NCBI GenBank assembly: GCA_041937175.2
Contig: CP166615.1
Coordinates: forward strand, 992,001-1,056,000
Direction: 5' to 3'
From: Limnothrix sp. BL-A-16
Lineage (GTDB): Bacteria > Cyanobacteriota > Cyanobacteriia > CACIAM-69d
Length of the DNA: 64,000 nucleotides
The translations under genes and the position numbers were made by a program. Numbering within the stretch: the stretch's first letter is position 1; every line of letters starts with the position of its first letter. This document shows, piece after piece, positions 16,209 through 40,013 of the stretch. The notes beneath the pieces are model-generated. The model did not search any database. It was not told the origin of the DNA and was given only the letters and a program-made list of their open reading frames with translations.

Positions 16209-16276
16209 TGGCACGACGAGCTGATTTTGAGCTGATTTTGATAGGCTGATCCTAGTGACTGTTTCCATTGCTCGAT

Positions 16277-16526
16277 CGTTAGGCAGCAAGGGAATAACAG
16301 TTGCCATCGCCAAACTGTTAGGCAGCAAGGGGCTTAGGGGGTGTCGTCGTTGAGCACGAAATCCCAGATTTGCCGTTAGCGGATCGTTAGGCAGCAAGGA
16401 GCTTAAGCCCCCGTTCGCGGATCATGGGGGGCAAGGGGCTTAAGCCCCCGTTCGCGGATCGTGGGGGACAAGGGGCTTAAGCCCCCGTTCGCGGATCGTG
16501 GGGGACAAGGGGCTTAAGCCCCTTGT
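16277..16526. repeat. composite REP-like cluster including three 37-bp tandem units
   Basis: Unit CCCCCGTTCGCGGATCGTGGGGGACAAGGGGCTTAAG at 16408-44, 16445-81 and 16482-518. Upstream TTAGGCAGCAAGG arms and a TAGGGGGTGTCGTC element end at about 16335. Confidence 0.85.
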
Positions 16527-16612: not shown

Positions 16613-17488
16613 ATGTTTCAAATTGAAGAATTAGCTGAACAGTGGCCGGTCTTTCGATTAACCGATGGGGCTGCCCAGTCCGTTTTAGAAGTGGTTCCCG
16701 ATCGCGGCGGCATCATCACCCGCTGGGCAGTTCAGGGCCAAGAGCTGCTCTATCTCGATCGTGATCGCTATCAAGATTCCAACCTCAGCGTTCGCGGCGG
16801 CATCCCCATTTTGTTCCCCATTTGCGGGAACTTACCGGACAATTACTATCAGCTACCCAGCGGAGAAACGGGCATTCTCAAGCAGCATGGCTTTGCACGA
16901 GATTTGCCTTGGATGGTCACGGGATCCGACTTGCGCGACGCAGCGAGCATTACCCTCACCCTCGATGCCACACCCGCAACCCTAGCCGTTTATCCCTTCC
17001 AGTTTCGATTGGATTTCACCTATCGGTTGCAGGGAAATCAGTTAGAAATAATCCAAAATCATCACAACTTGGGCGATCGCCCCATGCCCTTTTCCTCAGG
17101 GCTACATCCCTACTTCAACGTGGCTGATAAATCAGCCTTGGCGATCGATCTGCCTGCCACTGAATATTTCGATCAAAAGCGCCAATTGAGCGGGGCCTTT
17201 GATGGCAATTTGGACTTTGAACAAGATGAATTAGATCTGCGATTTCCTGTGGTCGATCGCCTATCGGCCACGGTCACAGATCGCCAGCAACAGCAAACCC
17301 TCAGCCTGGAGTTTGATGCTAGTTACCGCACCTTGGTGTTTTGGACATTGAAGGGTAAGCCTTTCTATTGCCTGGAACCCTGGACAGGGCCGCGCAATGC
17401 CTTAAACACGGGTGAACAATTGCTGTGGCTAGATCCCGGTTCGACTCACACCAATCAGGTGCGATTGCAACTGCAACATAACCGCTAA
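16613..17488 (+). CDS. aldose 1-epimerase family protein
   Basis: RGGIPILFPICG, QHGFAR, GLHPYF and YCLEPW motifs. Confidence 0.9.
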   Translation: MFQIEELAEQWPVFRLTDGAAQSVLEVVPDRGGIITRWAVQGQELLYLDRDRYQDSNLSVRGGIPILFPICGNLPDNYYQLPSGETGILKQHGFARDLPWMVTGSDLRDAASITLTLDATPATLAVYPFQFRLDFTYRLQGNQLEIIQNHHNLGDRPMPFSSGLHPYFNVADKSALAIDLPATEYFDQKRQLSGAFDGNLDFEQDELDLRFPVVDRLSATVTDRQQQQTLSLEFDASYRTLVFWTLKGKPFYCLEPWTGPRNALNTGEQLLWLDPGSTHTNQVRLQLQHNR

Positions 17489-17547
17489 AGCACAGCCCCT
17501 TAAGGGCGTTCCATTGATGTAGTTCGTTCACAATGGGTTCTTGATCG

Positions 17548-19011
17548 ATGATGCTCACGCCCGAGGAGTTTCAGCAACAATGGACAGCCCTGCTCGATCG
17601 GGTGGAAACCTGCACCACGGAAAAAGCCCTAGAAGATCGAGTTTTGACCCCATTGCTGATGCTGCTAGGCTATGACAGAGCCGATGTGGCCCAACAGGTT
17701 CCTTTTGGGCGTAAACGGGTTGATTTTTTAGTGAGGGCCCAACAAGCAGCTCCCTGTAGCCACTATTTGGTCATTGAGGCAAAAGCACCCCGCAAATCGA
17801 TCGCCCACAATAGCTGGCAACTGCGGGAATATCTCCGGGAATCGGGCAGTTTGTTGGGCCTATTAACCAATGGCAATCAGTTCAAGTTGCTCTATAACGA
17901 TGGTAGAGCAATTCACATTCTGTGGGAGTTTGAGCGAGCCGATCTTTACGGTAACTATCGGTTGCTGGGATCGTTGCTGTGGGAGCGCAATTGCGATCGG
18001 GTCATGGCCGCCTTTGCCGATAGCCATCGAAAGGTTCATCATCAATTTATTCGGGCGATCGCGCGGCTTTCTCACGATCCCAAAATGATGAGCCTGTTGG
18101 CGATTCACGATCGCCAAACCTCAGACCCAGAACCTCAACGGCGAGAGTCTATGATCATCACGGTTTTTAACAACAAGGGTGGGGTTGGTAAAACAACACT
18201 CACCATCAACTTAGCCGCTGCCTTAAGCCAAATGGGCAAGCGAGTTTTGCTGATTGATATTGATGCTCAGGCCAATTTAACCACCGGACTCGGAATTGAT
18301 CCCCTTGAAGATATTGAAAAAGCGGGACGCAAGGATATTACCCATCTGCTGACGGAACCCAAAACCACGGCCGCTTCTGTCACCATCAGCAAGCGCTGGG
18401 GCAATGTGACCTTGGATGTGATTCCTTCCCATATTCGGCTCAGCAATATGGAGAATCAGCTCATTCAGTTAGTGGATAGCGATCGAATCCTGGCCAAAAA
18501 ACTCAAAAACCATGACTATGATTTTGTATTCGTTGACCCACCGCCCTCCTTTGGGAAAGTGAACCGAATTTCCCTGATGGCTTCGGCGGGAGTTCTGGTG
18601 CCCACACAGCTTTCCCCCTATCCCATTCGTGCCTTGGAATATGTGCTTAGTCAAGTGGAAGAGGTGGGACAATTCCGAGAAACACCCCTGCCGATTGTGG
18701 GCATTGCTGTCAGTATGTATGATCGCCAGTCCAAGACTTTTAATCAAGCCATGGTGGATGATTTGAACGCCAAGCTTGATCGGCTCCCGGGGGGCGATCG
18801 CACGGCGCTTTTCCGCGAGGAAACTTGGGTTCCTCGGTTAAATGTTTTGTCCAAATCTCAATCGAAAGGCTATCCGCTTTGCGCGGCTGATTTTGATGAG
18901 GATCTGGGATCTCAGGATCGCAATTCCGTTGAAAATGCCCTGGCGGCCTTTGAGAATTTGGCCAAAGAATTGATTCAAAAAGTTAGTGTTGACGCTGAAC
19001 CTAACCCATGA
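17548..19011 (+). CDS. HsdR_N-like PD-(D/E)XK nuclease domain fused to ParA/Soj ATPase
   Basis: N-terminal LGY..RVDF..VIEAK..QLREY..LLTNG; C-terminal deviant Walker A NKGGVGKTT, IDIDAQAN and Walker B FVDPPPS. Confidence 0.8.
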   Translation: MMLTPEEFQQQWTALLDRVETCTTEKALEDRVLTPLLMLLGYDRADVAQQVPFGRKRVDFLVRAQQAAPCSHYLVIEAKAPRKSIAHNSWQLREYLRESGSLLGLLTNGNQFKLLYNDGRAIHILWEFERADLYGNYRLLGSLLWERNCDRVMAAFADSHRKVHHQFIRAIARLSHDPKMMSLLAIHDRQTSDPEPQRRESMIITVFNNKGGVGKTTLTINLAAALSQMGKRVLLIDIDAQANLTTGLGIDPLEDIEKAGRKDITHLLTEPKTTAASVTISKRWGNVTLDVIPSHIRLSNMENQLIQLVDSDRILAKKLKNHDYDFVFVDPPPSFGKVNRISLMASAGVLVPTQLSPYPIRALEYVLSQVEEVGQFRETPLPIVGIAVSMYDRQSKTFNQAMVDDLNAKLDRLPGGDRTALFREETWVPRLNVLSKSQSKGYPLCAADFDEDLGSQDRNSVENALAAFENLAKELIQKVSVDAEPNP

Positions 19012-19979
19012 GCGATTATCAAGAACGTCGCCGCCTGATTCGCGAAAATCTGAAGATTCAACCCGTTAACCATGGTCAGGTTCATACCTGTTTGGTGGGG
19101 ATGCGATCGCAACCGAAAATTTCACCCGATCGCTATGAGGAACTGCGGTGGAGTTTGCAGAATCACAACAGCAATTTGATCCCGATTTTAGTTCGCCGCA
19201 CCGATCAGCTTGGGGATGAAGTGGAATATGAGGTGATCCATGGGGCCGATTGGGTGGTGGTGGCCAATGATTTAGACATTGGAATGCTTTGGGCTTGGGT
19301 TTTTGACCTAAGTGATGCGGAAGCGGAATTAGCCCAAGAAGAGCTGGCGGTTTTGTTAGAGAGCGATCCCCCTTCGGCCTCGATTGCCAACCCCGATTCA
19401 AGCCCTCAGCCAGTTGTGGAAACAGGCATCGATTCAACTTTTGGCCAGCGTCTGGAAGAACAATTAACCCAACGGTTGGAGCAACTTCTCGATCAAAAAC
19501 TCACCCAGTCTCTTGCGGGAGTGACCATTGCCGATCGCCATGCTTTGGGGGATGCCAACTCAGCGCAAACATTGGCCAAGCTCGAAAGCCAAATGACAGC
19601 TCTCAGCCAACAGGTGGCGAACCTTAGCCAACCGGGAAATGCGATCGCGCAGCCACAGCCGCCCAGCCCTACGGGCGAAACCAACTCCAGCAGCGCCGCC
19701 CAGGAAATGGTTGCTTCTTTGGAGCGATCGATCCATCGCCTTTGCGAAGTGGTGACCGAAGGATCAAAAATTACCCTGACGATCGAGCCGCCGGCCCAGT
19801 CGCCAGCCAAAATTGTTGATCCCCAAGAAGCCGAACTGCGGGCCATTTACGGCGCGATCGCGTTGACCAAGCTCAAAACCCTCGCCAAAGAAAAGGGAAT
19901 CGCGGTCAGCAGCAAGGCGAAGGCTGAGGAAATTATTGAGGCCCTGATTGAATCCCATCGTCCATCGGTTGCGTCCTAG
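19008..19979 (+). CDS. ParB-N-like protein with coiled coil and C-terminal Rho-N-like helical domain
   Basis: ELRWSLQNHNSNLIPILVRR...YEVIHG resembles the ParB/Srx fold; C-terminal LTKLKTLAKEKGI...KAEEIIEAL. ATGA overlap with the upstream gene. Confidence 0.6.
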   Translation: MSDYQERRRLIRENLKIQPVNHGQVHTCLVGMRSQPKISPDRYEELRWSLQNHNSNLIPILVRRTDQLGDEVEYEVIHGADWVVVANDLDIGMLWAWVFDLSDAEAELAQEELAVLLESDPPSASIANPDSSPQPVVETGIDSTFGQRLEEQLTQRLEQLLDQKLTQSLAGVTIADRHALGDANSAQTLAKLESQMTALSQQVANLSQPGNAIAQPQPPSPTGETNSSSAAQEMVASLERSIHRLCEVVTEGSKITLTIEPPAQSPAKIVDPQEAELRAIYGAIALTKLKTLAKEKGIAVSSKAKAEEIIEALIESHRPSVAS

Positions 19980-20020
19980 TAGCATGACAGGCTTAATACA
20001 TTGGGTCAAAGTTGCGGAGC

Positions 20021-20124
20021 CAGTCGTAGTAACAAGGGGCTTGAGCATCTTGCTGCCTAACGATTTGGTGGTGATAACAGCCATGTAATTTAACCCAGTG
20101 AATTAAGGCAGCCACGCTACTAGG
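20021..20124. repeat. REP-core variant plus about 70-bp conserved tail
   Basis: CAAGGGGCTTGAGCATCTTGCTGCCTAACGATTTGGTGG...AATTTAACCCAG...TAGG aligns with 42655-42746. Confidence 0.8.
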
Positions 20125-26142: not shown

Positions 26143-29010
26143 TTAATTGGACTGGCGGAATTGGCGACAATTCAACGGGAAACCCAACTGGGGAGTCGCT
26201 TGCTTGGCCACAAGGGCGATCGAACCGTTGGCCCGAGTCACCCAACCTTGAGCTTCAACAATTGGCTCAGAAATAACTGGCTCAGATGGCCCGGCGGAAA
26301 CCGTGCGATCGGGCAAATTCGGGGCGATCGCCCGATCAGGAGCATCCGTCGCCTCCCCCGTCAGGTTGCCACCCAGCCACCGCACATCATCCCAATAGGC
26401 CCCCGCACTGCTGGCTGGCTGATCGGGTTCCGCCGGTAAGCCACCCCGTCCTGTCACCACAAATCGGTTACCCTCATCCGCTGCGCAACCGATAATAATC
26501 GCCGCTGTTGGATCCAAAGTGTCTTCCGGTAAGTCAATCAACCCCGACTCATCATTGAAGTTTTGGGTGTTGATTTGCACCGCGCCGCTGAAATTCGCCC
26601 CCAGCCCCGAAGTGGCCGTGATGTCGCTTTGGGGGGTGAGCTGCTGTCGAAAGGCCGTTCCCAAAACCGTATCCGCTTGAATGTCAACGCGCCCGCCCCG
26701 CCCCGCCTGGGCATTCGCCGTAATGTCGCTATTTTGTAGGGCGGCCAGGGAAGAAAGCTGAAACCGGATGTTGCCGCCGTCACTGCGCACGGCGTTGGTG
26801 GCGATCGAACTGCCGGCCAACATTTGCAGCGTGTTCACCTGCACATCAATGTTGCCCCCACGGCCGGAGGCGGTGTTGGCGGTGATGTTACTGTTTTCCA
26901 AACGGAGGCGATCGCCCGTGATGCTGAGGCTGCCCGCATCCCCCGTCAGGCTGCTGTTGACGGCAATTTCCCCTTGGTTGCGAATCACCAAATCGCCCAC
27001 TTGCAGGTTTAAACTGCCGCTGTTGCCCGTGGCGGTGATTTGGGGCAAATCTGCTCGCCCGGAAACCGCCAACAGCCCGCTGCGGAAACCATCGGCCGAT
27101 CGCCCACTGATTTCCATGCGATCGGCCTTGATGGTGATGTCTCCCCCTTGACCCAACCCCAGCGAGGAGCTAGAGAGGGTTGCGCCGTCCAAAACCCGCA
27201 GGAATGGCGTTTCAATCAACACGTTGCCGGCCGGATATTCCGTGAAGGTATCGGTGGCAATCCCACTGGAGAACAAGCGATCACCGGAACTTCCAATCAG
27301 GTCAATTTGGCGGGCGGCCCGAATCGTAATTTCGCCGGGTACCCCTCCCACCGGAAACAACCCAATCCGAATGTTGGCCCCGCTCTGCCCCCCAATAAAT
27401 GCCCCATCACGCACCGTGAGGGTATTGGTTTCAATGAGCATGGCTCCGCCCCGACCATTGCCAGCGATGGTGTTCGTGAAAATCCCACTGGCCACGGAAG
27501 CAAGGGGCACTGCATCTTTAATTTCAATGCCGTCCCGAACTTGCACCGTCAAAGCGCCGCCGGGGCCGTTGCCTAAATTCACCGTCACCAGTAGCGCTCC
27601 CCCTTGCACCAACAAGGATCCAGCGCGAATCGTGAGGGATCCGCCTTCGCCCGTGGACTCGCGAGCATTGCCCGTACCAATCAGGGAGCTAGCCGCATTC
27701 GTTTGCTCGGCATTGATGATGATGTCGCCGCCTCGGGCTGCGCCAAAGGTGGGCGCAAACACAACGGCCCCATCGGCAACTGTCAGGTTGCGCGCATTCA
27801 GCCGAATGGAACCCCCATTCCCCAGTCCAGCGGTGTTGATGTATAAGCCAGCGATGCGAACTTCAGGGGTAATTTGCCCCACCAAGCTGCCGCCAACAAT
27901 CACCTCGTTCACAAACTGCAATCCCAGGCCACTGAGGGTGATGGCATCGGTGGCACGAATATCAATGTCGCCGCCCTGGCCGGAGGCAAAGGTGCTGGCG
28001 GAAAGGAGGGCGGGCCCTTGGGTGTTGAAGCGGTTGGCTTCAATGACGATCGAGCCACCTCGGCCGGAGCCGCTGGTGTCGGTCACGATCGCGCTGGGCT
28101 GTTGGCCGGTGGGATCAATGCCCGCCACCACCACTTGATCAGCCCCGATCGCGATTCCCCGGCCGTTCACTGCCCCTTGCGTCAGGGCGGTGACCGTGGA
28201 GCCGTTGAGGATGGCCACTTGGCCCGCCTGCAGATTCAGCAGGCCACCGCCGGGCCCGCTGGCATCGATCGCGGCTTGCTGATCCAAATTAATCACGCCG
28301 CTGCGTTGGGCCGTGCCCAGGCCGATCGGCCCGTTGGTTTGCCAGCGCACCGTACCACCGGCCGCGCTGATCAGATCAATTTGCCCCTGAGGAGCCACGG
28401 CCCGCCCGCCCGCCAGGTCGATCGCCCCGCCCACCAACGACAGCCGCTGGGTCGGAGCCACCACCAAACTCCCCAACAGCCGAATCGGAGCCGGTTGTGA
28501 ACCTAACTGCAACCCTAAAGGAACCTGGGAGGACAACAGTGGGGCCCCACCCGATCGCCCCGCATCAAAGGTCACCCCATCGCCAAACACCAACCCTTCG
28601 GCCGTGCTGGCCCAAAATGCGCCCCCCAGTTGCAACTGGGCATTGGGCCCAAACAAAATTCCGTTGGGATTCAGCAGAAAAAGATTGGTTGAACCATTGG
28701 CCCGAAGCGTGCCCAAAATCTCCGATCCTTGGCTACCGGTCACCCGGGTGATGGCGTTTTGAACCTCTGCGCCCGTGTTGAACCAAGCGGTTATGCCCTC
28801 AGGAACCGAAAAGCGCTCAAAGCTGTGGAATAAATTCCCTCCCGATCGGGTGCCCCCGTCGATCTGGATCGTGTCGCCCGTGGTTTGGATGCGCGACGGT
28901 TCCGGCAATGTGCCATCGGGGGCGATCGGCCCCACTTGGGCCCCGGCAGCGCCTCCCCAAAGCCAAACACAACAGCCCGCCGCCAGCCATCTTCGCCGCA
29001 AATTTCCCAT
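26143..29010 (-). CDS. filamentous haemagglutinin N-terminal (TPS) domain exoprotein
   Basis: NLFHSFERFSV and NLFLLNPNGILFG, repeated GxGGxIxI beta-helix units, and C-terminal FVVTGRGGLP / IVEAQGW. Start uncertain. Confidence 0.9.
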   Translation of the reverse strand: MGNLRRRWLAAGCCVWLWGGAAGAQVGPIAPDGTLPEPSRIQTTGDTIQIDGGTRSGGNLFHSFERFSVPEGITAWFNTGAEVQNAITRVTGSQGSEILGTLRANGSTNLFLLNPNGILFGPNAQLQLGGAFWASTAEGLVFGDGVTFDAGRSGGAPLLSSQVPLGLQLGSQPAPIRLLGSLVVAPTQRLSLVGGAIDLAGGRAVAPQGQIDLISAAGGTVRWQTNGPIGLGTAQRSGVINLDQQAAIDASGPGGGLLNLQAGQVAILNGSTVTALTQGAVNGRGIAIGADQVVVAGIDPTGQQPSAIVTDTSGSGRGGSIVIEANRFNTQGPALLSASTFASGQGGDIDIRATDAITLSGLGLQFVNEVIVGGSLVGQITPEVRIAGLYINTAGLGNGGSIRLNARNLTVADGAVVFAPTFGAARGGDIIINAEQTNAASSLIGTGNARESTGEGGSLTIRAGSLLVQGGALLVTVNLGNGPGGALTVQVRDGIEIKDAVPLASVASGIFTNTIAGNGRGGAMLIETNTLTVRDGAFIGGQSGANIRIGLFPVGGVPGEITIRAARQIDLIGSSGDRLFSSGIATDTFTEYPAGNVLIETPFLRVLDGATLSSSSLGLGQGGDITIKADRMEISGRSADGFRSGLLAVSGRADLPQITATGNSGSLNLQVGDLVIRNQGEIAVNSSLTGDAGSLSITGDRLRLENSNITANTASGRGGNIDVQVNTLQMLAGSSIATNAVRSDGGNIRFQLSSLAALQNSDITANAQAGRGGRVDIQADTVLGTAFRQQLTPQSDITATSGLGANFSGAVQINTQNFNDESGLIDLPEDTLDPTAAIIIGCAADEGNRFVVTGRGGLPAEPDQPASSAGAYWDDVRWLGGNLTGEATDAPDRAIAPNLPDRTVSAGPSEPVISEPIVEAQGWVTRANGSIALVAKQATPQLGFPLNCRQFRQSN

Positions 29011-29348
29011 CGTCCTTTGGATCGGTGTTTGGCCCGTTTGACCCGTTTGGCCAAGGCCCCCTCCCAGGAAGATAACAAACGGCCAGCGAGTGCTGAGGCT
29101 CCCCGCGTTTGCTGTATTTACCCGATCGCCAGTCATGAAACAACGCATCCAAAACGCCTCATGGGCGGCCAAGCAAGGAGTCCGCCTTGCTGTGTTATAC
29201 CAACGACCCGAGACGCACCCGTAAAAGCAATCGATCTCAAACCATCAAATCATCAAGATTCATGATCAAAGATTCATGATCAAAGATTTCTGATCGCAAT
29301 TCCTGATCCAAGTCAATCATCTAATTTTCAATCCTCAAACTGACCGAG

Positions 29349-37163: not shown

Positions 37164-37229
37164 GTTTTGCAATCAATAGCAACTTTCCCAAGGCCCGCAG
37201 AATGCCCAATTCAGGATCCCCAATTGTCC

Positions 37230-40013
37230 ATGGCCGCAAACCGATCGAGCGTCAACCCCTCAAGAACCATCTGGCTGGGAGCCAAGGCCGCCCAGGTGCA
37301 ACGGGTGATCGCCCAAGGTCTTTGGGGGCCCTTTGATTGGGTGCTGACCCCGACCCGGCAGGCGGCCCGGGCGATCGGGGTGCAGGCCCAATCTCTCGAT
37401 CAACTCCTCAAGCGGTTGCGATTGGATGGCAACCTGGCTCCGATGCTGATGCGTCAGCGGGCTTTACGATCGGCCGTGGCGAAGGTTTGGCCTGATGTGG
37501 AAGCGGGGCCCTATGCCAATACGATCGCCCCCGTGATTCGGGAAATGCTGCACAACGGTTGGTCTCTGGCGATGGCGGCCCAGGAACCCACCTTGAGCGA
37601 TCGGGCGCGGCGGTTGGTGACCATTGCCCAGGCTTATTTGCAAGCGCTGCAATTATCGGGCGATCAAAAATTGGGCGATCAACAACCAGGTGATCAAAAA
37701 CTGGGCGATCAATCCACTCAGCGGCGGGCCGTTGATCGACCAGCCGATCGACTAGATGCGGCCCAAATTTATGGACAGGCAGCCCAGGCGATCGCCCAAG
37801 GTGCAGCGGATCCTCTGGTGTTGGGCCTCTGGGGCTATGGCTATTTGGCTCCCGATGCGATCGCCCTCATTGATGCCCTGGCGGGGCCCGGCAGTTGCCT
37901 TTGGTGGCCCAATGATCTGGCTTTGCATCGGCTGCTGCCGGCCTGGGAACAGCGGGGCTGGACGGTGCGATCGGCCTCGGAACTTTCTGAAGAACCCGAA
38001 GCAACAACGCCCCCGACCGAATGCCAAGCCTTGCAACAGGCGATCGCCTTTCCCACTCTGGAGGACGAGGTGCGCTGGGTTCTGGCCAAGGTCAAACAGC
38101 ATCTTCACCAAGGCGTGCCAGCTAATCAAATGGTGTTGATTGCCCGCGATGAGCAACGCTACGGGCCGAAGCTGTTGGAGGTGGCGCAGGAATTTGAGGT
38201 TCCGGTGCGGTTGCTGTATGGTGTGCCCCTCACGCAAACACGGGTGGGCCATTGGGTGCAATGCCTGCTGGAAGCGGCCCAACAACAATGGGCCTATGAG
38301 CCAGCGGTGCAATTATTGCGCCACCCGATCGGGCGAGATCGCCTAGAAGATCAATGGGAAACGGCCCGCCGCCTACGCCCCGATCGCCCCAAGGCCTGGG
38401 TTCAGGCAGGCATTGATCTTGCGGATTTGGCCCCGCCGGCCCAATCGGCCCGCCGCGAGGCCACCCGTGAGCAGTGGGTGAGTTGGGTGCAGGACTGTGC
38501 CCGATCGCTGGAGATTCGATCGGGCGCACAGCATTGGCCCAGTGAAGCCAACGCCCTCAGCAGCCTGAATCATCACTTGATTGAGCTAGCCCGTCCCAGC
38601 CACGAAACATTAACCCTGGCCAGCTTTGCCCAGGAATTGCGAGAACTGTTGAGCCTCATTGCCGTGCCCCGCCATCCTGGCCGCGGCGGTGTGGAATTGC
38701 ACAACCCCGCTAGCCTCATCGGGGCCCAATATCGCTACGGATTTGCCCTGGGGATGGTGGAAGGCTGGTGGCCCGCCCCGATCGCCCCTGATTTAGCCCT
38801 CGATTGGTTCGATCGACGCGCCCTCACCCAAGCCGGGTTTCCGATGGCTGGCACTGCCGAGCTGGCGGATCAAGAGCGCCTCCACAACAGCGCCGCCTTT
38901 GCCACCATCCAAGCGCAATTGGTGTTTAGCTATCCCCAGTGGCACGGCCAGCAACCCCAATCCCCCAGCGCCCTGCTCCGCAATCCCCAAATCAAACCCG
39001 CCGAGCCGGAGCCGGTTCCCGATGTCAGCCCCTTGGCCAGTTGGCAGCGGTTTTTGACCCGAGCCGATCGCCCCGCAGTCCTGGCGCAGGATCCCTTAGG
39101 CCCAGCCTTGGAGCGAGCTTGGCGGATGGAATGCCAACGATTGCGCAACGGCCCACCCAATCTCCCGGAAGATTTGGCATTTAACGGCTTCCTTGGCTCC
39201 CTCGCCGCCATGGATCCCGATCGGCATACCTTTAGCGCCTCTCAAATCACCGATTTGGGGCAATGTCCGTTCAAATACTTTGCACGGCGCGTTCTGCGGC
39301 TCCAAGAACCCCAAGAAACCGAAGCCGACTTGCCCCGAAACAGCAAAGGCAACCTCTACCACCGCGTTTTGCAAAAACTGGGGGAACAACAGCGCGATCA
39401 GCAAGCGCCCGTTTTCAATGACCCTGAGCAACGGTTGGCGGCCCTCGAAACCTGGCTGGCCGAAGCGGCCACCGAACTGCAACTGCCGCGCCATCTCACC
39501 TGGACAGCCCAGCGCCAAGAACTCCTGGCCCAATTGCAGTGGTTAATTGTGCAAGACAGCTTTTTACCCACCGAATCCACCATCCTCCATTGCGAAGTGC
39601 CCTTTGAAGGGGAGTGGCTGGGTCTGAAGGTGAAGGGCATGATCGATCGAGTGGATCAGTCCCCCGATGGCTTGGTTCTGATTGATTACAAAACCGGTAA
39701 AGCCGAAGGAGCCAAAGTCAAAGACCAAACCGGCCAAGCCAGCCTGGATGTGCAACTGTTGGTTTATGCCAGCGCCGCCGCCCAACTGGTTCCCGAAACC
39801 CCCGTCGCCAAGGCCTATTACTACAGTTTGCGAGAAGCGAAGCCCTCGCCATCCCAACAGCCCACCCGTGACGATCCAGAGGTGGGAGCCTTGGTGCAAC
39901 GATTGCGTCACCACTTAGCGGCGGGGGAATACCCTGTGGATCCCGATCGGGAATACAAAGCCTGTCAGTTTTGCGAAGCCTCATCGGCCTGTCGTTGTGT
40001 CCAGGATGGCTGA
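37230..40013 (+). CDS. AddB/RexB-like helicase-dead PD-(D/E)XK nuclease with Fe-S cysteines
   Basis: SASQI..GQCPFKYF, GNLYH, GMIDRVD, LIDYKTG, QLLVY and CQFCEASSAC. Start uncertain (37167 or 37230). Confidence 0.8.
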   Translation: MAANRSSVNPSRTIWLGAKAAQVQRVIAQGLWGPFDWVLTPTRQAARAIGVQAQSLDQLLKRLRLDGNLAPMLMRQRALRSAVAKVWPDVEAGPYANTIAPVIREMLHNGWSLAMAAQEPTLSDRARRLVTIAQAYLQALQLSGDQKLGDQQPGDQKLGDQSTQRRAVDRPADRLDAAQIYGQAAQAIAQGAADPLVLGLWGYGYLAPDAIALIDALAGPGSCLWWPNDLALHRLLPAWEQRGWTVRSASELSEEPEATTPPTECQALQQAIAFPTLEDEVRWVLAKVKQHLHQGVPANQMVLIARDEQRYGPKLLEVAQEFEVPVRLLYGVPLTQTRVGHWVQCLLEAAQQQWAYEPAVQLLRHPIGRDRLEDQWETARRLRPDRPKAWVQAGIDLADLAPPAQSARREATREQWVSWVQDCARSLEIRSGAQHWPSEANALSSLNHHLIELARPSHETLTLASFAQELRELLSLIAVPRHPGRGGVELHNPASLIGAQYRYGFALGMVEGWWPAPIAPDLALDWFDRRALTQAGFPMAGTAELADQERLHNSAAFATIQAQLVFSYPQWHGQQPQSPSALLRNPQIKPAEPEPVPDVSPLASWQRFLTRADRPAVLAQDPLGPALERAWRMECQRLRNGPPNLPEDLAFNGFLGSLAAMDPDRHTFSASQITDLGQCPFKYFARRVLRLQEPQETEADLPRNSKGNLYHRVLQKLGEQQRDQQAPVFNDPEQRLAALETWLAEAATELQLPRHLTWTAQRQELLAQLQWLIVQDSFLPTESTILHCEVPFEGEWLGLKVKGMIDRVDQSPDGLVLIDYKTGKAEGAKVKDQTGQASLDVQLLVYASAAAQLVPETPVAKAYYYSLREAKPSPSQQPTRDDPEVGALVQRLRHHLAAGEYPVDPDREYKACQFCEASSACRCVQDG

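Follow-up and report, generated by a model that had tools for sequence, protein, structure and literature searches.

The effector-ParAB system was defined computationally by Li, Burroughs & Aravind (bioRxiv, 22 Oct 2026; 10.64898/2026.10.19.760177). In this preprint, the system is described as an operon of a ParA ATPase and a ParB-like protein, in which an effector domain, most often of the restriction endonuclease fold, is placed directly N-terminal to ParA. The ParB component is judged to be enzymatically inactive, and a variable HhH or Rho-N-type helix-extended-helix (HeH) module replaces its helix-turn-helix (HTH). In other versions, a caspase, HEPN, TOPRIM, or phosphoesterase effector replaces the nuclease. 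The ParA component is assigned to the ConB1 clade within PriB1, which has an Asn at the start of the Walker A motif, a DxDxQ motif, and a conserved Val in Walker A. According to the same text, the systems are over-represented in multicellular taxa such as cyanobacteria, and an immune model is put forward: ParB senses invader DNA and recruits ParA into a static coat, with the fused effector as a second line. Here, we describe a two-gene locus of this kind in the cyanobacterium Limnothrix sp. BL-A-16. It lies in a 64,000-nucleotide (nt) stretch of contig CP166615.1 (positions 992,001 to 1,056,000), which is called the window and to which all unlabeled coordinates refer. Gene 1 encodes a nuclease–ParA fusion protein, and gene 2 encodes a degenerate ParB-like partner (Table 1).

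We identify the pair as a typical representative of the effector-ParAB class, which was defined by computation; it has every feature of operon and domain structure by which the class is delimited. Compared with the class as presented in the preprint, the locus has no structural difference, and its gene pair corresponds to the commonest form described there. Our literature search found no experimental study or earlier description beyond the 2026 preprint and a general survey of PD-(D/E)XK proteins from 2012. An initial annotation of the DNA had proposed the pair as a candidate for an undescribed surveillance or defence module. The anatomy it gave is correct for the nuclease head, the complete ParA, the degenerate ParB-N domain, and the Rho-N-type tail, and for the reading frames with their ATGA overlap; "undescribed" no longer holds, since the preprint already defines this build, and the function is still a prediction, so that the annotation as a whole is partly supported.

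Nuclease head and ParA ATPase of gene 1

Gene 1 is ~50% identical over its full length to hundreds of cyanobacterial proteins of 450–510 amino acids (aa). The C-terminal part gave a strong Pfam match to AAA_31 (9e-44, residues 203–375), along with matches to the customary range of ParA/MinD families. Among 30 aligned homologues, the Walker A sequence NNKGGVGKT, the DIDAQ motif, and the Walker B Asp are invariant (30/30), as is the signature lysine K210 within KGGVGKT, in agreement with the complete ParA ATPase recognized by the initial annotation.

The N-terminal part matched the Pfam family HSDR_N_2 below the threshold (2.3e-4; 21.7 bits against a cut-off of 25), and its fold was therefore examined by structure. 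A profile of this domain gave nothing significant against PDB sequences; BpuSI appeared at an E value of 0.11, and the better-scoring matches were spurious helical ones. An AlphaFold2 model of residues 1–198 was built on a 23-sequence alignment that spans three subfamilies at 21–37% identity to gene 1, and its predicted local distance difference test score (pLDDT) was 89.7. In VIA-align, the model was most similar to DrdV (7lvv; Z score 12.6, root mean square deviation [rmsd] 2.8 Å, 129 residues aligned), followed by an HsdR fragment (3h1t, Z score 12.0), BpuSI (Z score 11.3), and EcoR124I HsdR (Z score 9.2), with rmsd values of 2.8–4.0 Å over 119–139 residues for these restriction heads. Foldseek placed the HsdR fragment 3h1t (E 3.3e-4), DrdV, and BpuSI at the top, and then other PD-(D/E)XK proteins. 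By its modeled structure, the nuclease head is a real restriction-type PD-(D/E)XK domain, and the HsdR_N-like reading of the initial annotation stands.

E25, D59, E77, K79, Y95, G104, and N108 are invariant in 23/23 sequences of the wider alignment. Q91 is invariant in the 30-sequence alignment but not in the 23-sequence alignment, where the class-2 rows mostly have Arg. The motif residues that had been picked out as catalytic by eye (VD...EAK...QL..Y...TNG) are genuine. Because the predicted catalytic set is invariant across three subfamilies of such low identity, the sequences argue that catalysis by the head is under selection. The linker varies among the homologues in both length and sequence, as seen from gapped columns in both alignments. 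Among the models of PADLOC v2.0.0 (2023), gene 1 matched only PDC-M28B, over the Walker A region (residues 193–239, 1.9e-8), and mad2 (0.005).

Structure of the ParB-like partner

The gene 2 protein itself has no match among the Pfam, NCBIfam, or PADLOC models. A search gave 26 homologues at E ≤ 1e-3, and the family is more informative: among 41 aligned members, Pfam recognized ParB_N in 28, Rho_N in nine, SAP in six, HeH in three, and HHH_3 in three, and some homologues end in an HhH module in place of HeH. A family profile searched against PDB sequences found Noc (2.7e-5) and Spo0J (2.4e-3). In hhalign, the family was aligned with the canonical ParB of the same genome (E 1.7e-5, probability 78.6%), with HGADWVVVA opposite AGERRYRAA. 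No Arg was found at the GERR columns in the family rows inspected, which were every second one of the 41.

The model of gene 2 has an overall pLDDT of 72.5 and is confident for residues 20–118 and 270–317. Foldseek with the N-terminal domain retrieved Noc (7ol9, E 1.6e-6) and, more weakly, ParB (7bm8, 6sdk), KorB, PadC, and Srx; the superpositions gave rmsd values of 2.4–2.9 Å over ~100 residues. The structural matches to ParB/Noc are confined to these ~100 residues, after which come a low-confidence helical region and the HeH module. N56, R63, E75, and A86 are invariant in the ParB-N domain. No HTH family was found for gene 2 in the Pfam scan. Family sequences and the model together show a protein predicted to keep the ParB-N fold without the CTP-binding arginines and the parS-binding HTH, and to end instead in a generic HeH nucleic acid–binding tail. 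The ParB-N-like region and the Rho-N-like tail named in the initial annotation are both supported, the latter at the family level; in the gene 2 protein itself, the tail is modeled as three confident helices, which align with the tails of the family members.

The middle of the protein is poorly conserved, with gapped columns in the family alignment. The coiled coil of the initial annotation corresponds to a helical stretch of low confidence in this region and is a possibility. In the N-terminal basic helix, I11 and L15 are nearly invariant. This helix may contact ParA, by analogy with the N-terminal peptides of ParB proteins, which are known to do so.

Table 1 Features of the gene pair and its flanks in the window
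Feature	Position	Strand	Basis or remark
Tandem palindromic repeat array	16395-16526		37-nt unit bearing palindrome GGGGCTTAAGCCCC
Aldose 1-epimerase, upstream of gene 1	16613..17488		Pfam 2.4e-29
Gene 1, nuclease–ParA fusion protein, 487 aa	17548..19011	+	Open reading frame
PD-(D/E)XK nuclease head, HsdR-N / type IIG-IIL kind, residues 1–156	17548..18015	+	AlphaFold2 model, VIA-align, Foldseek, invariant residues
Predicted catalytic set E25, D59, E77, K79, plus Q91, Y95	D59 17722-17724; E77 17776-17778; K79 17782-17784	+	
Helical linker, residues 157–199	18016..18144	+	Model helices 146–175 and 178–190
ParA/Soj-type ATPase domain, residues 200–487	18145..19008	+	Pfam AAA_31 9e-44, CbiA 1.4e-18
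ParA motifs: deviant Walker A NNKGGVGKT (K210–T216), DIDAQ (D237–Q241), Walker B D330	K210–T216 18175-18195	+	
ATGA overlap, gene 1 stop / gene 2 start	19008..19011	+	Direct sequence reading
Gene 2, degenerate ParB-like partner, 323 aa	19008..19979	+	Open reading frame
N-terminal basic helix DYQERRRLIRENL, residues 3–15	19014..19052	+	Model pLDDT ~62; candidate ParA-contacting peptide
ParB-N/Srx-fold domain, residues 20–118	19065..19361	+	pLDDT 92–98; GERRxR motif replaced by HGADWV
Variable middle, residues 119–271, Q/L/S-rich	19362..19820	+	pLDDT 37–69; disordered stretches and helices 144–170, 185–207, 227–248
C-terminal HeH module, Rho-N/SAP kind, residues 272–317	19821..19958	+	pLDDT 90–96; helices 272–282, 286–295, 306–317
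Imperfect inverted repeat, 36 nt, 81% complementary, arms 78 nt apart	19975-20124		Between gene 2 and tRNA-Thr
tRNA-Thr(TGT), downstream of gene 2	20288-20360		

Gene linkage and relation to chromosomal parAB

The two genes are translationally overlapped and co-inherited. A gene 2 homologue is present in all 16 sampled genomes with a class-1 homologue of gene 1, and at 15 of the 16 loci, it lies directly downstream on the same strand, which bears out the expectation that the two genes co-occur. The class-2 subfamily (30–36% identity) has its own partner at nine of ten loci, a ParB-N-like protein that reads DGHFEYYAA and has an HhH-like tail. The exception in class 1 is the sampled genome G017, which carries the closest homologue of gene 1 (70% identity; C1:1186004-1187449) and a gene 2 homologue ~1 Mb away (C1:2230997-2231998; loci L039 and L054). 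Both frames are open and look intact, and neither gene is beside the other. Since they are unlinked yet intact in this genome, the two genes do not have to travel together.

The genome to which the window belongs (G000; 4.56 Mb, two contigs) has a canonical ParB elsewhere (G000:C1:159527-160483; L001 1399..2355), a protein of 318 aa with a ParB_N match of 5.5e-31 and an intact GERRYRAA. It also contains a second, diverged pair of the same build on the minus strand (G000:C1 ~1576878-1578940; L004 467..2529). The first protein of that pair (458 aa) combines a D...ExK head with a ParA domain (AAA_31 9.6e-27) and is 25% identical to gene 1; the second, in an overlapping frame of 229 aa, is ParB-N-like (a weak ParB_N match, E 0.004) with an HeH-like tail. 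The guanine + cytosine (GC) contents of the two genes are 0.48 and 0.51. With a separate canonical ParB and a second such pair in the genome, the pair in the window is not the ordinary parAB, in line with the initial annotation.

By eye, the canonical ParB gene is flanked by a gene for a LysR-type regulator-like protein and by an open reading frame (ORF) for a membrane protein, and no ParA gene adjoins it. The second pair adjoins a 298-aa ORF that appears methyltransferase-like by eye.

In one metatranscriptome study, two runs yielded contigs of ~96% identity that span most of gene 1 and extend across the junction of the two genes (18455-19288), although contigs cannot show a single transcript. 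They are compatible with expression in a close relative, of which they are a weak sign, as DNA carry-over is possible. Promoters and terminators were predicted less often than in shuffled sequences (1 versus 3.4 and 2 versus 5.4, respectively), and the scan was uninformative on the transcription unit.

Comparison with known systems

The likeness to the effector-ParAB class, as set out in the preprint, covers the operon with its ATGA overlap and adjacent partner, the restriction-fold effector N-terminal to ParA, a ParB conservation pattern that suggests loss of CTPase activity (HGADWVVVA against AGERRYRAA), and the C-terminal HhH/HeH module in place of the HTH. The features given there for ConB1 are present and invariant here as NNKGGVGKT and DIDAQ; these motifs are not exclusive to the clade, and by them the ParA is a candidate member of it. 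Within Cyanobacteriota, the phylum sampled here, the nuclease head is concentrated in certain families (see below). A defence-island signal was not reproduced by our small context control.

With ParABS (Soj/Spo0J, type I), the pair shares a ParA with a deviant Walker A and the signature lysine, a partner in which a basic N-terminal peptide precedes the ParB-N/Srx fold, and the order parA then parB. It differs in that the partner reads GADW in place of the GERR of the GERRxR CTP motif, lacks the parS-binding HTH and the usual C-terminal dimerization domain, and coexists with a separate canonical ParB, and in that the ParA bears a nuclease head. The HsdR and type IIG–IIL enzymes (EcoR124I HsdR, 3h1t, BpuSI, and DrdV) resemble gene 1 in their PD-(D/E)XK head, which has the motifs E...D...ExK and Q/RxxxY, and in its attachment to a module that is driven by NTP or bound to DNA. 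In gene 1, however, the motor is a ParA dimerizing ATPase and not an SF2 translocase or a methyltransferase-specificity module, and the 21 neighboring ORFs scanned (314-40013) include neither the HsdM nor the HsdS of type I restriction–modification. The ParA–HeH systems, as outlined in the preprint (10.64898/2026.10.19.760177), pair a ParA of the same assemblage with a fast-evolving HeH protein proposed to sense invader DNA. Their partner is described there without ParB-N and their ParA without a fused effector, whereas here the HeH module ends a ParB-like protein. Carboxysome positioning of the McdA/McdB type was also weighed and rejected, given the conserved nuclease head of gene 1 and the ParB-N/HeH make-up of gene 2.

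Distribution and inheritance

The distribution was examined with a nuclease-head profile in 301 genomes of the phylum (132 genera). Matches were found in 92 genomes (57 genera) at E ≤ 1e-8 and in 64 at E ≤ 1e-40, nearly all of the latter in open frames of 449–532 aa; four lie in shorter frames (237, 247, 262, and 299 aa). At E ≤ 1e-40, the families designated f3, f7, and f8 stand out (13/16, 20/37, and 9/18 genomes, respectively). Among ten more families lumped together, only three of 166 genomes have a match. At least 20 genomes have two or more matches in open frames of 420–535 aa, a count made at the level of the nuclease head only. The nuclease-head family is common in large-genome cyanobacteria, and any one class is patchy. 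The corresponding search with full-length gene 1 (E ≤ 1e-40) gave 27/301, which is an under-count, as class-2 members lie near the threshold and only five candidates were scored per genome. No record among 72,556 plasmids and 50,697 phages reaches 80% coverage of gene 1, and for this reason the pair is not a plasmid or phage partition system.

Gene 1 shows some non-vertical signal. It is 70% identical to the homologue in G017, a genome of another family, versus 52% to that in G203, a genome of the same family, whereas the identities of glycogen phosphorylase are reversed (63 and 76, respectively) and those of MurG are 64 and 65. The gene 1 tree joins G000 to G017 with a support of 98/98, and it is largely coherent within families, all four f7 and all three f19 sequences being grouped together. 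Two of the 16 class-1 loci are decayed: gene 1 is split into two frames in G183, and its ParA part is missing in G080.

Genomic context

Defence-like neighbors within four genes were counted at 15 class-1 loci and, as a control, around MurG in the same 15 genomes. They occur at four of the pair loci (HEC-01A/B, a GmrSD-like PDC-M55C, two PDC-S03, and an MkoA-like helicase–ParA) and at three of the MurG loci (PDC-M38A with DarTG, two methyltransferases, and two PDC-S03). A defence-island signal is absent in this small sample of 15 versus 15 loci. The neighborhoods of the pair differ between genera, and insertion sequence (IS)-type genes are near two of the 15 loci.

Several neighbors at other loci were recorded. 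In G289, a PADLOC HEC-01A/HEC-01B pair (an AAA_21 ATPase, 4.4e-151, and a DUF4276 protein; L042 8592-9964) is directly upstream of the class-1 pair and is the clearest defence-type neighbor among the loci. In G183, an SF1 helicase in two ORFs (L053 2382-6274) lies directly downstream of the frameshifted pair; the second ORF is fused to a ParA domain (AAA_12 + AAA_31, 523 aa; PADLOC MkoA-like, 1e-33) and is followed by a gene for a 232-aa protein of no known family. This helicase–ParA is possibly another effector–ParA variant. At four of the 15 class-1 loci, a conserved orphan ParA of 294–314 aa (AAA_31 ~1e-37 to 1e-33) is divergently oriented upstream of the nuclease–ParA gene (L043 8826-9710, L045 10236-11120, L046 5827-6711, and L051 5824-6768). 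It also occurs at several class-2 loci, with further loci at L016, L019, L028, L035, L036, and L037, and is absent at the pair in the window's genome. In L045, an IS605-type TnpB is inserted between the orphan ParA and the nuclease–ParA gene, and in L043, the 294-aa orphan ParA is followed by a 198-aa gene whose product looks secreted by eye, with a hydrophobic N terminus.

In the window, the 21 scanned ORFs are ordinary cell genes, for example those for glycogen phosphorylase, DUF3038/DUF4335 proteins, an RTX-CAP protein, PMT_2-like membrane proteins, and MurG. No methyltransferase, HsdS, HsdM, or integrase was found among them, as had been noted from the start, and the epimerase, tRNA, and repeats reported around the pair were confirmed. 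The epimerase synteny is not conserved; downstream of the epimerase orthologues of G203 and G017, the pair is absent. The GC contents of gene 1 (0.50) and gene 2 (0.535) are below those of the flanking genes (0.60–0.63).

The repeat region upstream extends over 16258-16526. It has a 54-nt unit in three full copies at 37-nt spacing, the palindrome GGGGCTTAAGCCCC four times, and three looser 35-nt repeats just 5′ of the tandem array. A related palindrome, GCCCCTTAAGGGC, is at 17495-17507, between the epimerase and gene 1. Over the inverted repeat downstream of gene 2, the depth of metatranscriptome contigs jumps to 80–145 versus 7–20 over the genes, which suggests a dispersed repeat or an element like a miniature inverted-repeat transposable element, common to other loci or organisms. 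Two large proteins encoded farther away show no apparent relation to the pair: one, of 1009 aa, has a two-partner-secretion TPS domain (3e-45; 26143-29172, minus strand), and the other, of 948 aa, has a C-terminal PDDEXK_1 nuclease domain (3.3e-38; 37167-40013, plus strand).

Discussion

We propose, with a confidence that stays a little below an even chance, that the pair is a host-encoded two-protein DNA-targeting machine of the effector-ParAB class, built from partition parts, with incoming or selfish DNA as its most likely target. Driven by ATP, gene 1 would form the sandwich dimer typical of ParA on DNA, and the dimer would unite two single-site nuclease heads, so that both strands could be cut. 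In HsdR, DrdV, and BpuSI, cleavage by such heads is known to depend on contact between enzyme molecules. Gene 2 would stay bound to DNA through its HeH tails and would probably self-associate via the helical middle; it would engage ParA through the N-terminal basic helix and the degenerate ParB-N domain and thereby set where and when the ATPase and the nuclease fire. The target, most likely phage, plasmid, or other mobile DNA following the preprint, is the least supported step. We put foreign DNA first in view of the preprint and of three signs, namely several diverged pairs in one genome, the two decayed loci, and the non-vertical signal. These signs, along with the low GC and the differing neighborhoods, speak for an accessory or conflict role.

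A number of observations weigh against this proposal. Gene 1 is well conserved, at ~50% identity across orders; the nuclease head is found in 64 of the 301 genomes and in most members of some families, and the tree within families is largely coherent. Full-length gene 1 is absent from the plasmid and phage records, and the two genes are separated in G017. The neighbors in the window are housekeeping genes, no self/non-self mark such as a methyltransferase was found among the ORFs scanned nearby, and PADLOC v2.0.0 has no full-length model match for either protein. The immune role in the preprint is itself inferred from computation. The defence role suggested by the initial annotation is still a prediction: the architecture fits a predicted immune class, and the context shows no excess over MurG. 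Equally hypothetical is the annotation's proposal that ParA would gate the nuclease and that the ParB-like protein would serve as sensor, loader, or antitoxin.

Many of these points would be accommodated if the pair were a resident machine that handles the multi-copy chromosomes of the host itself and in which a ParA-gated nuclease trims, resolves, culls, or clears copies. It would act in filamentous, polyploid cyanobacteria, for example at division, differentiation, or cell death, and the degenerate, CTP-independent ParB-like protein would mark DNA for cutting. We regard this explanation as unlikely but as a serious rival because of the wide, family-coherent distribution and the negative context control. 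The near-universal head in families such as f3 and f7, the coherent clades of the gene 1 tree, the housekeeping neighborhoods, the restriction of full-length genes to chromosomes, the retention of both unlinked genes in G017, and the lack of a methyltransferase for self-marking among the scanned ORFs are in its favor. On the other hand, one housekeeping task would hardly call for several diverged paralogs in a genome, each paired with a partner type of its own; loci decay, many complete genomes of the same families have no copy, and matches are rare in the lumped families. The effector swaps listed in the preprint (10.64898/2026.10.19.760177) also fit conflict systems better. Alternatively, a potentially lethal nuclease in an overlapping two-gene operon recalls a toxin–antitoxin-like selfish module, in which gene 1 is a nuclease toxin restrained by gene 2 and the module persists by addiction. 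Gene 1 is broken and the gene 2 homologue open at the decayed loci of G183 and G080, and the GC is below that of the flanks, as such a module might predict; it is nevertheless improbable, as full-length copies are missing from plasmids and phages, transposases or integrases rarely adjoin, the genes are unlinked in G017, and known toxins make do with far simpler designs than an ATP-dependent machine of 487 aa with an intact ParA.

PD-(D/E)XK folds are also reused as inactive binding domains, and the pair could be a true positioning or partition system in which nothing is cut and the nuclease fold is only a DNA anchor or cargo binder. In favor are the partition-type components (ParA and the ParB-N fold), the intact ParA motifs, and the mention of an inactive restriction endonuclease for another system in the preprint (10.64898/2026.10.19.760177). 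An inert anchor would be expected to lose E25, D59, E77, and K79, which are instead invariant across three deeply diverged classes; the partner has neither the CTP clamp motif nor a site-specific HTH, and no conserved cargo genes are nearby, so that we consider this quite improbable. That the pair is simply the ordinary chromosomal parAB of the organism is hardly credible, even though a ParA gene followed by a ParB-fold gene in one operon is what such a locus would look like. The canonical ParB with GERRYRAA lies elsewhere, the genome has two such pairs, gene 2 is without GERR and HTH, and 209 of the 301 sampled genomes have no nuclease-head match even at E ≤ 1e-8.

This locus adds no new architecture to the class. 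What it contributes is a genome with two diverged pairs, an unlinked case (G017), and a control of genomic context by which the immune claim is moderated. If the predicted role of the DNA-targeting machine is true, the pair would be a restriction-like defence without a methyltransferase, in which partition machinery replaces the motor and specificity subunits, and an immune role would imply a new way of telling foreign from own DNA. The module is compact (two genes, 2.4 kb) and has clear predicted catalytic residues. Being present in 64 of the 301 genomes, often in multiple copies, the nuclease-head family may bear on the poor transformability of many strains and on cyanophage ecology. If the machine acts on host chromosomes, it would offer a handle on genome-copy control in polyploid bacteria, and the reported association with multicellular taxa would then hint at how cyanobacteria handle their chromosomes and not at defence.

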